IMG/VR virus record: IMGVR_UViG_2721755676_000001
Origin: a virus
Lineage: Duplodnaviria; Heunggongvirae; Uroviricota; Caudoviricetes
DNA length: 64,000 nt
Strand: one strand, 5' to 3'
Positions 33,428-37,057 of this stretch are shown in pieces; positions within the stretch are counted from its first letter, which is position 1, and the number at the start of each line of letters is the position of its first letter. The notes below the pieces were generated by a model. That model searched no databases. It worked only from the letters and a program-made list of their open reading frames with translations, and was not told the DNA's origin. Position numbers and translations under genes: made by a program.

Positions 33428-33470
33428 ATGTCTAGTATTTCCGAAGCTCATATGTTCGCCGCTGGCGCTC
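33428..33470 (+). pseudogene. Phage early gene truncated after 14 codons by IS1/chromosomal DNA
   Basis: ATG at 33428 with upstream promoter-type palindrome and RBS; frame runs straight into the IS1 inverted repeat at 33471. Confidence 0.4.
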
Positions 33471-33597
33471 GGTGATGCTGCCAACTTACTGATTTAGTGT
33501 ATGATGGTGTTTTTGAGGTGCTCCAGTGGCTTCTGTTTCTATCAGCTGTCCCTCCTGTTCAGCTACTGACGGGGTGGTGCGTAACGGCAAAAGCACC
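33471..33597 (+). mobile_element. IS1 left-end fragment (IRL plus first 24 codons of insA), truncated
   Basis: GGTGATGCTGCCAACTTACTGATTTAGTGTATGATGGTG... and [24 protein letters not shown] match IS1 from memory; identity stops at 33597. Confidence 0.85.
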
Positions 33598-33606
33598 ACC
33601 TTTTTA

Positions 33607-34707
33607 TCACACTGCGCGGAATGCGATTTCGCCAGGTATTACTTCACCTTGCCAATACATTTGGGCAGCAACGCGATCTGCGAGGTCACGATAAATAGCC
33701 GTAAATTCACTATCTGGACGACTAATAACGGTTGGTGTTCCGTTATCCAGATCTTCACGAAGAGAGATATGAAGTGGCATTTGGCCTAACAACTGCGTGT
33801 TGTATTTCTCGGCCAGTTTCTGTGCGCCACCGGTGCCAAAAATTGGCTCGTGATGACCGCAGTTACTGCAAATATGCACACTCATGTTTTCAACGATACC
33901 CAGTACCGGCACTTCGACTTTTTCGAACATCACAATGCCTTTCTTCGCATCGATCAGCGCGATGTCTTGCGGCGTAGTTACCACAACCGCACCAGTTACA
34001 GGAATGTTCTGCGCCAGCGTCAATTGAATATCACCAGTGCCCGGTGGCATATCGAGAACGAGATAGTCCAGATCAGGCCACAGTGTTTCCTGCAACATCT
34101 GCATCAGCGCCTTGCTGGCCATCGGTCCACGCCACACCATTGCATTGTCGTCGGTGACCAGATAACCAATAGAGTTGGTTGCCAGGCCATGAGACATGAT
34201 AGGTGCCATGTGAGTACCGTCCGGTGAGGTTGGACGTTGGTTTTCCGCGCCCAGCATGGTTGGAATTGATGGACCATAGATATCGGCATCCAAAATACCA
34301 ACTTTCGCACCTTCAGCAGCCAACGCCAGTGCCAGGTTTACCGCCGTGGAGGATTTACCCACGCCGCCCTTGCCTGAGCTGACGGCGATAATGTTCTTAA
34401 CGCCATTAATGCCTGGTTGGTTTTTGACGCGCTTAAGCGTGGCAATGTTGTACGACAGCTTCCAGTCAATAGCCTTTGCGCCAGTGATACGGAGCAGATC
34501 ACCACTACATTGCTCTTTCAGGTCTTCAAAAGGCTTATTCCACACGAAAGGCATGATTAGTTCGACATGCAGTGTGTCATCCATCAACGCAACATGGTGT
34601 AACGCTTTAAGCGTAGTCAGGTTGTGTTTCAGGGTTGGGTGCTGAAAATTAGCCAGCGTACCGGCTACCATTGCTCTCAGGGCATCCGGCGATTTGGACT
34701 CGCTCAT
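33607..34707 (-). CDS. apbC: Mrp/ApbC iron-sulfur cluster carrier ATPase (E. coli core gene)
   Basis: 366 aa; P-loop [10 protein letters not shown], CxxC, C-terminus GEIAFRAV; divergent from metG as in E. coli. Confidence 0.95.
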
Positions 34708-34864
34708 CCCGTCTCCTTTATTTTAATTTGCGCAATTGTCGCCTTGTAGTGTACTCCAGCTACGACATTTAATCATTTATGAGAAATGCTGTTATCACAT
34801 GGCAGACATAAGGCCATTTTGTTACTATCAAGCCCCTTTTCACTACAAAGAAGTAATGCCTACT

Positions 34865-36898
34865 ATGACCCAAGTCGCGAAGAAAATTCTGGTGACGTGC
34901 GCGCTGCCGTACGCTAACGGCTCAATCCACCTCGGCCATATGCTGGAGCACATCCAGGCTGATGTCTGGGTTCGTTACCAGCGAATGCGCGGCCACGAGG
35001 TTAATTTCATCTGTGCCGACGATGCCCACGGTACGCCAATCATGCTGAAAGCACAGCAGCTTGGTATCACACCGGAACAGATGATTGGCGAAATGAGTCA
35101 GGAACATCAGACTGATTTCGCAGGCTTTAACATCAGCTATGACAACTATCACTCGACGCACAGCGAAGAGAACCGTCAGTTGTCCGAGCTTATCTATACT
35201 CGCCTGAAAGAGAACGGTTTTATTAAAAACCGCACCATCTCTCAGCTGTACGACCCGGAAAAAGGCATGTTCCTGCCGGACCGTTTTGTAAAAGGCACAT
35301 GCCCGAAATGTAAAGCGCCGGATCAATACGGCGATAACTGTGAAGTCTGCGGCGCGACATACAGCCCGACGGAACTGATCGAGCCGAAATCAGTGGTTTC
35401 TGGCGCTACACCGGTAATGCGTGATTCCGAACACTTCTTCTTTGATCTGCCTTCTTTCAGCGAAATGTTGCAGGCATGGACCCGCAGCGGTGCGTTGCAG
35501 GAGCAGGTGGCAAACAAAATGCAGGAGTGGTTTGAATCTGGCCTGCAACAGTGGGATATCTCCCGTGACGCACCTTACTTCGGTTTTGAAATTCCGAACG
35601 CACCGGGCAAATACTTCTACGTCTGGCTGGACGCGCCGATTGGCTACATGGGTTCCTTCAAGAATCTGTGCGACAAACGCGGCGACACTACCAGCTTCGA
35701 CGAATACTGGAAGAAAGACTCCACCGCCGAGCTGTACCACTTCATCGGCAAAGATATCGTTTACTTCCACAGCCTGTTCTGGCCTGCCATGCTGGAAGGC
35801 AGCAACTTCCGCAAGCCGACCAACCTGTTTGTTCACGGCTATGTGACGGTGAACGGCGCGAAGATGTCCAAGTCTCGCGGCACCTTTATTAAAGCCAGCA
35901 CCTGGCTGAATCATTTTGACGCCGACAGCCTGCGTTACTACTACACTGCGAAACTCTCTTCGCGCATTGATGATATCGATCTCAACCTGGAAGATTTCGT
36001 TCAGCGTGTGAATGCCGATATCGTTAACAAAGTGGTTAACCTGGCCTCCCGTAATGCAGGCTTTATCAACAAGCGTTTTGACGGCGTGCTGGCAAGCGAA
36101 CTGGCTGACCCGCAACTGTACAAAACCTTTACTGATGCCGCTGAAGTGATTGGCGAAGCATGGGAAAGCCGCGAATTTGGCAAAGCTATCCGTGAAATCA
36201 TGGCACTGGCTGACCTGGCTAACCGCTATGTTGATGAACAGGCTCCGTGGGTGGTGGCAAAGCAGGAAGGACGCGATGCCGATCTGCAGGCGATTTGCTC
36301 TATGGGCATTAACCTGTTCCGCGTGCTGATGACGTACCTGAAACCGGTACTGCCGAAACTGACTGAACGTGCAGAAGCATTCCTGAATACAGAACTGACC
36401 TGGGATGGTATCCAGCAACCGCTGCTGGGCCATAAAGTGAATCCGTTCAAGGCACTGTATAACCGCATCGATATGAAGCAGGTTGAAGCACTGGTGGAAG
36501 CATCCAAAGAAGAAGTGAAAGCCACAGCCGCACCGGTAACTGGCCCACTGGCTGACGACCCGATTCAGGAAACTATCACCTTTGACGACTTCGCCAAAGT
36601 TGACCTGCGCGTGGCGCTGATTGAAAACGCAGAGTTTGTAGAAGGTTCTGACAAACTGCTTCGCCTGACGCTGGATCTCGGTGGTGAAAAGCGTAATGTC
36701 TTCTCAGGCATCCGTTCCGCTTATCCAGATCCACAGGCACTGATTGGTCGTCACACCATTATGGTGGCTAACCTGGCACCACGTAAAATGCGCTTCGGTA
36801 TCTCTGAAGGCATGGTGATGGCTGCTGGCCCCGGCGGGAAAGATATCTTCCTGTTAAGCCCGGATGCTGGTGCTAAACCTGGCCACCAGGTTAAGTAA
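34865..36898 (+). CDS. metG: Methionyl-tRNA synthetase (E. coli core gene)
   Basis: 677 aa from [26 protein letters not shown]; KMSKS; zinc knuckle CPKC...CEVC; C-terminal tRNA-binding domain. Confidence 0.97.
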
Positions 36899-36920
36899 TT
36901 AAACAACCTCTCTTCGCAAT

Positions 36921-36945
36921 GCCCGGCAACACGCCGGGCATTTTC
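36921..36945 (+). terminator. metG terminator hairpin
   Basis: GCCCGGCAACACGCCGGGC followed by ATTTT. Confidence 0.55.
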
Positions 36946-37057
36946 ATATAGACACAACCCCTTCTGACTTTAACAAACTCTAAAACAATTTGTTTTCTAC
37001 CTTTTGTTGATTGAGATAATAAGTCATATAAGAAAACAAATTGTTTAGGAGATGAAG

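Follow-up and report, generated by a model that had tools for sequence, protein, structure and literature searches.

Phage-plasmids of the pWPMR2 type, which belong to the SSU5 supergroup, are described as carrying an extra, highly variable metG in Shigella and E. coli (PMC12452169), and a preprint equates this type with clade K (bioRxiv 10.1101/2025.09.12.675607). The inducible, virion-forming phage-plasmid Cyrano (pLF82) encodes humD, apbC, and metG at consecutive loci (CYRAN_98-100), where apbC was annotated as a MinD-like septum protein (PMC9928086), and a group of CTX-M-15 "phage-like plasmids" that includes pECOH89 has ISEcp1-blaCTX-M-15 nearby and retains the genes from an HD-domain gene to humD (PMC3999498). 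The window analyzed here, a stretch of 64,000 nucleotides from an IMG/VR virus record, carries the same apbC-metG pair. Positions 33300 to 37100 match three plasmids, pM160133_p3, NZ_CP015915, and NZ_CP080257, at 100% identity. A near-identical plasmid is annotated with RepB, ParB-family proteins, terminase, portal, major capsid protein, and nrdAB. Of these genes, those for ParB, terminase, portal, and capsid align to the window at 91 to 100% identity, and repB is known from that plasmid's annotation, outside the aligned window stretch. These backbone genes assign the window to the SSU5 supergroup of phage-plasmids, and its source is probably an element of the pECOH89/pLF82 (Cyrano)/pWPMR2 type. 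The preliminary description, made from the sequence alone, had likewise placed the region inside a phage-plasmid.

At 95.6 to 100% identity, the apbC-metG block was recovered in no fewer than 202 plasmid records and in 4 phage records (the phage relatives being Cyrano, CMS-2020a, and PhiR41_1), and the module is present in about 216 of 5,426 complete E. coli genomes, or about 4%. In the inspected relatives without IS1 the block has the humD terminator on one side and the next promoter module on the other, and the window holds a plasmid-type allele at this conserved locus, with its right flank conserved and its left flank changed by an IS1-associated deletion. Shigella sonnei plasmid NZ_CP034066 has the same block at 98.4% nucleotide identity and an ApbC protein identical to that of the window, but it keeps the upstream HD-to-humD genes, which the window has lost in favor of an IS1 scar. 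The Cyrano block is 97.7% identical at the nucleotide level, with humD intact, other genes upstream of humD, and another gene after the metG terminator. Plasmid pECOH89 has the intact start of the HD gene that survives as a stub in the window, and the CTX-M-15 plasmid pLAU-OXA1 shares this 5' start, the neighboring genes, and an identical MetG protein. The genes neighboring the block are variable. We propose that apbC-metG forms a conserved accessory module within this clade, with its own control region and terminator, set between two early-promoter units.

The order, orientation, and protein lengths of the pair match those of apbC (mrp)-metG on Enterobacteriaceae chromosomes, but the flanking yehE and molR genes of the chromosomal pair are absent from the phage-plasmid, the terminators differ, and the intergenic regions are mostly unrelated. 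A core E. coli chromosome block with a native-looking intergenic region and metG terminator had been proposed initially, with the reservation that diverged phage-borne homologs in place of host-identical DNA would speak against it. We counted as host identical only DNA with at least about 98% nucleotide identity continuing into flanking intergenic DNA, and diverged phage-borne homologs are what we found. Across a comparison set of 5,426 complete E. coli genomes, every one of the 5,421 chromosome records with a match showed 82.2 to 83.3% identity to the segment made up of apbC and the intergenic region. For metG the identity to K-12 is 94.3%, and chromosomal homology ends at the stop codons of both genes. 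The identity distribution for apbC plus the intergenic region is bimodal, with 215 records at 95% or more as opposed to the 5,421 chromosome records at 82.2 to 83.3%. The divergent apbC/metG control region (positions 34708 to 34864) shows 100% identity across 15 of the 17 phage-plasmid copies; its only Escherichia-like part is the last 47 nucleotides before the metG ATG (89 to 91%), and the nearest relative of the remainder is Citrobacter, at 78%. The intrinsic terminator of metG (positions 36918 to 36946, plus strand), a hairpin at 36918 to 36942 followed by a T-run, folds at −19.1 kcal/mol (z −4.8) and is conserved in phage-plasmids; it differs from the E. coli chromosomal terminator and had no match in the fetched chromosomal loci from about 80 species.

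Both reading frames of the divergent pair are intact, as the preliminary description had noted. ApbC (positions 33607 to 34707, minus strand, 366 amino acids) matches PF10609 (E value of 2.4e-102) and contains both the deviant Walker A motif GKGGVGKS and the CXXC motif CSNC, features that identify the predicted product as an Fe-S cluster carrier ATPase of the ApbC/Mrp/NBP35 family. MetG (positions 34865 to 36898, plus strand, 677 amino acids) matches PF09334 (E value of 4.6e-166), PF19303, and PF01588 (tRNA_bind), and its translation retains HLGH, KMSKS, and the zinc knuckles CPKC and CEVC, consistent with a class I methionyl-tRNA synthetase. The ApbC protein is the same in all phage-plasmid copies (0 nonsynonymous versus 7 to 22 synonymous differences), with no amino acid changes across plasmids of E. 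coli, E. albertii, and Shigella, and this exact protein occurs in 12,090 blocks of an assembly collection. Among plasmid copies MetG shows 1 to 4 nonsynonymous versus 42 to 65 synonymous differences (dN/dS of 0.02). These patterns indicate that both genes are under strong purifying selection, and the comparison identifies ApbC, so far given little attention, as the protein under the tighter constraint.

The divergence of the two genes from their chromosomal counterparts is discordant. MetG is 98.8% identical to the K-12 protein, with eight conservative substitutions, and the dS of metG relative to K-12 is 0.28, the same as between K-12 and Escherichia sp. E1V33. ApbC is 94.5% identical to the K-12 protein, and the dS of apbC is 1.56 relative to K-12, compared with 1.19 between K-12 and Citrobacter. 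A donor scan using one genome for each of about 80 species, the retained loci of which do not include E. albertii, E. fergusonii, E. marmotae, or E. ruysiae chromosomes, gave best identities among the matches listed of 82.6% for apbC (Citrobacter werkmanii) and 94.3% for metG, and a protein search, in which 90% clustering hides close relatives, returned no chromosomal ApbC above 95% identity. Plasmid metG is highly polymorphic, with 12 distinct alleles in the 12 copies sampled, 187 polymorphic sites, an Rmin of 28, and 1,321 pairs of sites that are incompatible under the four-gamete test. One of the alleles, L093, contains an E. coli-like tract at nucleotides 331 to 800 (Fisher P value of 7e-4), and the fixed differences of plasmid metG from K-12 are enriched toward the gene ends.

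Taken from sequence comparison, these results suggest that apbC and metG have different ancestries and that the metG alleles, that of the window included, are recombination mosaics with chromosomal metG. The module was most likely acquired a single time by the clade's ancestor, the source being an enterobacterial chromosome other than that of E. coli; a search with the humD protein among phages yielded humD genes of the P1 type and no empty site of the SSU5 type. In our reading apbC and most of the intergenic region would still stand at the old, genus-level divergence, and the interior of metG would have been overwritten repeatedly through homologous recombination with metG on the chromosomes of Escherichia hosts, which would explain its Escherichia-like appearance, its variation between plasmids, and its mosaicism. 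The discordance could also reflect an original donor that was itself mosaic, or capture of apbC and metG on separate occasions. The features first described are all present at the coordinates given for them, and metG on phage-plasmids has been published before; beyond the summaries of that work, we add the separate ancestries of the two genes and the mosaicism of metG with chromosomal alleles. The case bears on how an essential host gene exchanges sequence with a mobile element, and the reshuffling of metG with host alleles is relevant to typing of the "variable metG" as a marker of antimicrobial tolerance.

To the left of the block, the window retains the truncated 5' end of an HD-domain gene (positions 33428 to 33475, plus strand), with an ATG at 33428, 14 native codons, and then an IS1-supplied Arg codon and a TGA at 33473 to 33475, within the IS1 inverted repeat. 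The preliminary description had reported this 14-codon stub and proposed comparison with relatives to find the interrupted gene; positions 33395 to 33470 are 100% identical to the start of an intact 213-amino-acid HD-domain gene in 33 plasmids, a protein that matches PF13328 (HD_4, RelA/SpoT-type hydrolase fold; E value of 1.2e-18). It had also spoken of a usual upstream motif and of phage-type promoter sequence resuming near 36960, and both belong to a genuine repeat family, a 60-nucleotide promoter-like module present in five copies (at 30398, 33357, 36980, 39476, and 40915). The reference copy of this direct-repeat family (positions 33357 to 33416, plus strand) would, as a promoter-like element, have driven the HD-gene operon in the ancestor, and the next early-region copy (positions 36980 to 37039, plus strand; 73% identical to the 33357 copy) lies upstream of a DUF1380 gene (positions 37058 to 37300). 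A AGAAAACAAnTTGTTT box occurs seven to eight times, and the strict core ATTGTTTTCTAYCTTTT is found only at 33366 and 36989, with a chance expectation of 0 in the window. A scan for promoter and terminator consensus sequences performed no better than on shuffled sequence; no tRNA genes were found in the window and no tandem repeats in positions 30000 to 46000.

A functional IS1 is about 768 bp long, carries insA and insB between two terminal inverted repeats, and is flanked by a target-site duplication. The window contains the left inverted repeat, GGTGATGCTGCC, beginning at 33471 as first described, and IS1 bases 1 to 127 only (positions 33471 to 33597, plus strand), comprising the inverted repeat and the first 24 insA codons, without the right repeat and without insB; this 127-bp piece is 100% identical to the IS1 of phage P1, and from position 33598 the sequence departs from what we take to be the canonical IS1. 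It is a nonfunctional remnant, already labeled "IS1 family transposase, incomplete" in the RefSeq annotation of a near-identical plasmid. Nine bases, rather than the eight given earlier, separate it from the apbC stop codon. We likewise saw no second IS1 in positions 33000 to 37500, and the RefSeq annotation of a 49-kb stretch of the near-identical plasmid contains this one partial IS1 and no other.

Alignments of the junction with pNT1F31, Cyrano, p88COLEC-2, pLAU-OXA1, and one Shigella sonnei plasmid suggest how the remnant arose. The last five bases of the IS1 stub, GCACC (positions 33593 to 33597, the putative deletion junction), also occur in the humD terminator, in its right arm, and pLAU-OXA1 has the HD-to-humD arrangement intact. 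In one sublineage, IS1 would have inserted at codon 15 of the HD-domain gene, and a later deletion would have fused IS1, at about base 127, with the humD terminator at the 5-bp GCACC microhomology, removing, relative to pLAU-OXA1, about 4.6 kb and eight genes, including the body of the HD gene and humD. A terminator-like hairpin appears to have re-formed at the junction (positions 33571 to 33605, plus strand, from a fold calculation), in which GGGGTGGTGC from IS1 is base-paired with GCACCACCTT from the terminator arm, followed by a T5 run, in a 10-bp stem of −17.5 kcal/mol (z −2.8). For the ancestral hairpin, GGTGGTGCAATGCACCACC plus T5, the calculated energy is −20.1 kcal/mol. The order of insertion and then internal deletion is inferred, because no plasmid with a full-length IS1 at the HD site was found. 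In an IS1-mediated adjacent deletion the element is left intact and the deletion begins exactly at its end. Of the adjacent deletion suggested in the preliminary description, an IS1-associated deletion stands but the classical form does not, as the endpoints lie inside IS1 near base 127 and in the humD terminator at the microhomology; because IS1 itself breaks off at base 127, neither IS end can have been the starting point of the deletion, and we rejected the classical mechanism.

We place the probability of the account as a whole, an old clade module whose metG has been overwritten by host alleles and beside which an IS1 scar was left later, at about 80%. The preliminary description had instead raised an IS1-mediated capture or cointegrate remnant. 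On this view IS1 would have brought in the resident E. coli mrp-metG by composite transposition, cointegrate resolution, or adjacent deletion. IS1 is abundant in the relevant hosts and its end lies only 9 bp from the apbC stop codon, but a segment captured in this way is bounded by IS copies and absent from IS-free relatives, and here the inspected IS1-free relatives have the block at the same site: the IS1 junctions occur in only 7 plasmid records, compared with the at least 202 that carry the block. In addition, apbC is 82% identical to every E. coli chromosome, the left end of IS1 adjoins the plasmid HD gene instead of chromosomal DNA, no second copy was seen, and the copy present is internally truncated. 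With one truncated IS end, and with most carriers of the block lacking the IS1 junctions, capture as a composite transposon or cointegrate was rejected and is highly improbable; the IS1 stub appears to be unrelated to capture and to be the scar of a later deletion.

An assembly chimera of plasmid and chromosome reads, also raised at first, has a practically negligible probability. Plasmid and chromosomal metG share stretches with very few mismatches that could confuse short-read assemblers, and some draft contigs do fuse plasmid-type and chromosomal sequence within metG, but both IS1 junctions are 100% identical over 207 bp in seven independent plasmid assemblies from human, pig, chicken, and panda, those inspected being complete and circular. 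More contigs with the same arrangement were found, and the sequence is plasmid type throughout rather than chromosomal. Our analysis thereby removes the chimera and IS-capture readings. It is also scarcely credible that the block is a neutral, decaying passenger without function: plasmid accessory DNA is often transient and the neighboring genes vary, but the reading frames are intact with all catalytic motifs kept, the dN/dS ratio is about 0.02, and the ApbC sequence is unchanged across the E. coli, E. albertii, and Shigella plasmids and exact in the 12,090 assembly-collection blocks. Host housekeeping genes had been thought unusual in such an element, but the same gene array also carries nrdAB, thyA, dfrA51, and rnhA, and the metG of phage-plasmids has been published.

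In staphylococci, mupA (ileS2) is a plasmid-borne second aminoacyl-tRNA synthetase that is drug insensitive and highly diverged. The metG of the window is similar as an extra synthetase copy on a mobile element linked to an altered antimicrobial response, but its product is nearly identical to the host enzyme, and therefore any effect must come from dosage or regulation. Cyrano is present at 5.5 copies per cell (PMC9928086), and an extra methionyl-tRNA synthetase copy on such a multicopy element would, from the literature and our own reasoning, perturb synthetase dosage. Tam et al. 2024 (medRxiv 10.1101/2024.10.27.24316207), as summarized in PMC12452169, connected phage-plasmid metG with antimicrobial persistence; the dosage shift is reported to yield persistent subpopulations. 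The gene is of epidemiological relevance, with a reported link to persistence in Shigella sonnei strains associated with multidrug resistance. In overnight LB cultures of LF82, read counts were 92 for apbC, 16 for metG, and about 7 to 10 for the first structural genes listed; apbC was classed among the morons, its expression in the lysogen being 9 times that of the prophage background, and metG stood at about 1.6 times background (PMC9928086), a figure that may be lowered by reads mapping to both metG copies. ApbC, expressed in the lysogen, probably supports Fe-S protein maturation.

The module could instead serve mainly the lytic cycle, supplying additional Met-tRNA charging, translation initiation, and Fe-S maturation for phage enzymes, with host persistence as a side effect. 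Its position within an early/metabolic array with nrdAB, thyA, dfrA, and rnhA, the early-promoter modules on both sides, and the weak expression of metG in the LF82 lysogen agree with this idea, but the ninefold expression of apbC in the lysogen, the control region and terminator that metG has of its own, and the host phenotype described for plasmid metG in the literature make it, in our judgment, rather unlikely as the principal role. Lytic and lysogenic roles are not mutually exclusive.

Finally, plasmid metG may act as a homology bridge to an essential chromosomal gene that permits recurrent conversion with hosts and, through an occasional single crossover, integrase-free integration of the 110-kb element at chromosomal metG, a tentative proposal to which we give a low probability. 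If true, Hfr-like or specialized-transduction-like mobilization would be possible, and the gene pair might first have been picked up through a comparable event in a host outside Escherichia. Among RefSeq complete E. coli genomes the high-identity copies equal the plasmid places in number, and thus give no sign of a chromosomal plasmid-type apbC, and a look-up of one downstream plasmid protein for the second junction of an integrated element gave ordinary plasmid arrangements only. Three draft contigs nevertheless join plasmid-type apbC and the 5' part of metG to a chromosomal-type metG 3' part and molR; the crossover lies near metG nucleotides 1100 to 1200 in L089 and L092, and L089 and L097 are long enough to hold the entire element.

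The apbC-metG pair (33607-36898) lies in a region whose preliminary description was confirmed on reading 33000-37500. A 60-nt promoter-like module (33357-33416) precedes an ATG at 33428 that opens the truncated frame of an HD-domain gene, which runs for 14 codons to a TGA (33473-33475) inside the left inverted repeat of IS1. The IS1 left end occupies 33471-33597 with 100% identity to IS1; its reported length of about 127 bp stands, but its distance from the apbC stop codon is nine bases and not the 8 first given. The alignment covers IS1 to 33597, and base 33598 appears to deviate from the canonical element. 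Divergent apbC (33607-34707, minus strand, 366 aa) and metG (34865-36898, 677 aa) are separated by 157 nt, and metG is followed by a strong hairpin terminator (36918-36942; dG -19.1 kcal/mol, z -4.8). Phage-type promoter sequence does resume after metG, as a further copy of the module (36980-37039) upstream of a DUF1380 gene (37058-37300).

Three ~113-kb E. coli plasmids (pM160133_p3, NZ_CP015915, and NZ_CP080257) match the 3.8-kb region at 100% identity, and many other plasmids match it at 95.6 to 99%, as do the phage records Cyrano (pLF82), CMS-2020a, and PhiR41_1. The annotated relatives are SSU5-type phage-plasmids that encode a RepB initiator, ParB-family proteins, terminase, portal, and capsid, with a long early gene array containing nrdA, nrdB, thyA, dfrA51, a Dam-like methylase, and rnhA; all of these genes map into the window except repB, which is outside its aligned part. 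The window aligns with pM160133_p3 in two blocks (99.4% and 97.9% identical), and as a whole it is a close relative of that plasmid in a separate record. The expectation that host housekeeping genes would be unusual here is weakened, since the presence of nrdA, nrdB, thyA, dfrA51, and rnhA in the relatives' array makes host-like metabolic genes normal for SSU5-type phage-plasmids. In the window these five genes lie in a single plus-strand array (16412-28111), with the trimethoprim resistance gene dfrA51 at 22609-23085 (plus strand). A group II intron in the stretch of the plasmid close to its replication genes is suggested by an Rfam match at 5429-5515 (plus strand; RF00029, 64.9 bits, gathering score 40).

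Two explanations raised for the IS1 junctions can be rejected. An assembly chimera is incompatible with seven plasmid records, of human, pig, chicken, and giant panda origin, in which both junctions recur at 100% identity over 207 bp; those inspected are complete and circular, and more contigs have the same arrangement. Capture of the block by IS1 fails because the block occurs in at least 202 plasmid records and the junctions in only 7, and the IS1-free relatives that we inspected keep the block at the same site. The block is an accessory module already known from a common phage-plasmid family, accompanied by an ordinary IS scar. The original observation holds, and its interpretation is only partly supported.

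The block is also not core E. coli chromosome, as had been proposed, but a pair of diverged phage-borne homologues. In 5,426 complete E. coli genomes, every chromosome matched the whole block at ~90% identity; apbC with the intergenic region had 82.2 to 83.3% identity in 5,421 chromosome records and at least 95% in 215 records, with one record intermediate. Synonymous divergence (dS) of apbC is 1.56 between the window and K-12 and 1.42 between the window and Citrobacter werkmanii, compared with 1.19 for K-12 versus C. werkmanii and 0.58 for K-12 versus Escherichia sp. E1V33. In contrast, metG is 94.3% identical to K-12, 93.0% to Escherichia sp. E1V33, and 88% to Citrobacter, and its dS from K-12 (0.28) equals that between K-12 and E1V33. 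The intergenic region, described as native looking, is Escherichia-like in its last 47 nt only, the remainder being closest to Citrobacter (78%). Chromosomal homology stops exactly at both stop codons, and the terminator after metG is unrelated to the chromosomal one.

The metG gene itself is a recombination mosaic. All 12 sampled plasmid copies are distinct alleles, with 187 polymorphic sites, 1,321 incompatible site pairs in the four-gamete test, and at least 28 recombination events (Rmin); the copy in one compared locus (L093) resembles E. coli along a tract from nucleotide 331 to 800, with 4 mismatches versus 22 in the window allele (Fisher p 7e-4). Differences from K-12 shared by all plasmid alleles number just 37; of these, 12 lie within the first 150 or the final 60 nt (3.8 expected). 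Such clustering would follow from a requirement of conversion tracts for flanking homology, which would keep them away from the gene ends. Along with the contrast in divergence between apbC and metG, this pattern suggests that the pair was acquired once from a non-Escherichia enterobacterial chromosome, that apbC, too divergent to recombine, has stayed unchanged since capture, and that metG, conserved enough to recombine, would have been overwritten step by step by the metG of Escherichia hosts. What remains of interest is the differing ancestry of the two genes, continuing exchange with a host gene that is essential, and how strictly ApbC is conserved.

Both genes are maintained by selection. 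Relative to the window, copies from E. coli, E. albertii, and Shigella sonnei plasmids have 0 amino acid changes and 7 to 22 synonymous differences in ApbC, and 1 to 4 nonsynonymous and 42 to 65 synonymous differences in MetG; the identical ApbC protein occurs in 12,090 blocks of a public assembly collection. The ApbC motifs GKGGVGKS and CSNC are intact. MetG likewise retains HLGH, KMSKS, and its zinc knuckles, and its eight substitutions relative to K-12 are all conservative, most being the residue usual in other enterobacteria, so that the enzyme looks normal rather than crippled. Ciprofloxacin induces Cyrano, which is virion-forming and has a copy number of 5.5 per cell (PMC9928086); its RNA-seq read counts in overnight LB were 148 for humD, 92 for apbC, and 16 for metG, with ~7 to 10 for the first structural genes (PMC9928086, supplementary table), and its apbC homologue is listed as a moron at 9 times prophage background (PMC9928086). 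According to a summary in PMC12452169, Tam et al. (2024, medRxiv 10.1101/2024.10.27.24316207) associated a highly variable extra metG on a phage-plasmid with multidrug-resistant Shigella sonnei and found that its expression gives a subpopulation predisposed to gain third-generation cephalosporin resistance. A 2025 preprint names the element pWPMR2 and places it also in E. coli CC131, CC23, and CC73. With the Cyrano apbC, this published metG means that the module itself was already known. From this literature, the mechanistic step may be that an extra, essentially wild-type MetRS leads to persistence.

The gene interrupted by IS1 can be named from the relatives: the 76 bases up to the junction match exactly the beginning of an HD-domain gene (213 aa; Pfam HD_4, E 1.2e-18) that is intact in 33 related plasmids, including pECOH89. 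In pLAU-OXA1, whose MetG protein equals the window's, six small genes come after this one, and the gene just before the terminator encodes an S24 peptidase, is preceded by a LexA box, and has 91.5 to 93% protein identity to humD of phages P1 and P7. The hairpin terminator closing that array, GG(T/C)GGTGC-AAT-GCACC(A/G)CC plus T5, lies 5 bp from the apbC stop codon. The window lacks everything from HD codon 15 up to the right hairpin arm, about 4,612 to 4,617 bp and eight genes as measured on pLAU-OXA1, and IS1 bases 1 to 127 occupy its place. The deletion junction falls within a GCACC microhomology, and IS1 GGGGTGGTGC pairs with the surviving terminator arm to re-form a 10-bp hairpin plus T5 (dG -17.5 kcal/mol). 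The simplest history is that IS1 would first have inserted into the HD gene, after which an illegitimate deletion would have arisen with one endpoint within IS1; an intermediate with full IS1 at this site was not found among the plasmid records searched. The classical adjacent deletion considered earlier is ruled out, because it would leave IS1 intact and here IS1 is itself cut internally; RefSeq labels the stub in a near-identical plasmid an incomplete IS1 transposase. The HD_4 gene (RelA/SpoT-type hydrolase; remnant at 33428-33470, intact copy at 9534-10175 of related locus L087) may encode a small alarmone hydrolase, and loss of it and of the P1-type humD could change stringent-response or SOS-related behavior in this sublineage.

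Each of three draft contigs (L089, L092, and L097) joins a plasmid side, with plasmid genes, plasmid-type apbC, and the metG 5' part, to metG 3' sequence of chromosomal type, after which comes the chromosomal DUF4132/molR gene. The switch lies near metG nucleotides 1100 to 1200 in L089 and L092, where the copies are almost identical, and is not sharply placed in L097. The plasmid sides of L089 (163 kb) and L097 (262 kb) exceed the 110-kb element, which favors real integration over a mis-join and suggests integration at chromosomal metG by homologous recombination. A lookup of the downstream plasmid protein did not recover the reciprocal junction, and RefSeq complete E. coli genomes gave no sign of a chromosomal plasmid-type apbC, high-identity copies equaling plasmid places in number. 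Two chromosome-sized sequences (L090, a 4.9-Mb contig, and L094, CP043541.1, 5.57 Mb) have phage-plasmid genes flanking the block on both sides, and in a 2.7-Mb contig (L095) plasmid-type apbC and the first ~475 nt of metG adjoin lambdoid prophage tail genes.

The segment directly upstream of humD/apbC is a cargo hot spot in seven relatives (L002, L005, L087, L089, L098, L100, and L103), holding, depending on the plasmid, a type I restriction-modification system, a holE-like theta subunit, ISEcp1-blaCTX-M-15, an invasin-like protein of >1,400 aa, or GNAT and polysaccharide deacetylase genes; the adjoining apbC-metG block is constant across them. The upstream motif first called usual belongs to a genuine repeat family, the 60-nt module having five copies in the window (30398, 33357, 36980, 39476, and 40915); its strict core occurs at just two sites, which bracket the apbC-metG region (0 expected by chance). 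The AGAAAACAAnTTGTTT box has 7 to 8 copies in the window. A 30-nt repeat, ACCAACCTCTT..CAGGCTACCGAAAA (family D4), has five copies in two clusters (38411-38501 and 41573-41632), at which Tandem Repeats Finder reported none. The early-gene array (28993-43162) consists of repeated units of the 60-nt module and a palindromic AGAAAACAAnTTGTTTAA box, a candidate operator site, directly 5' of the ribosome-binding site, and homology between relatives appears to end at these module and box sites.
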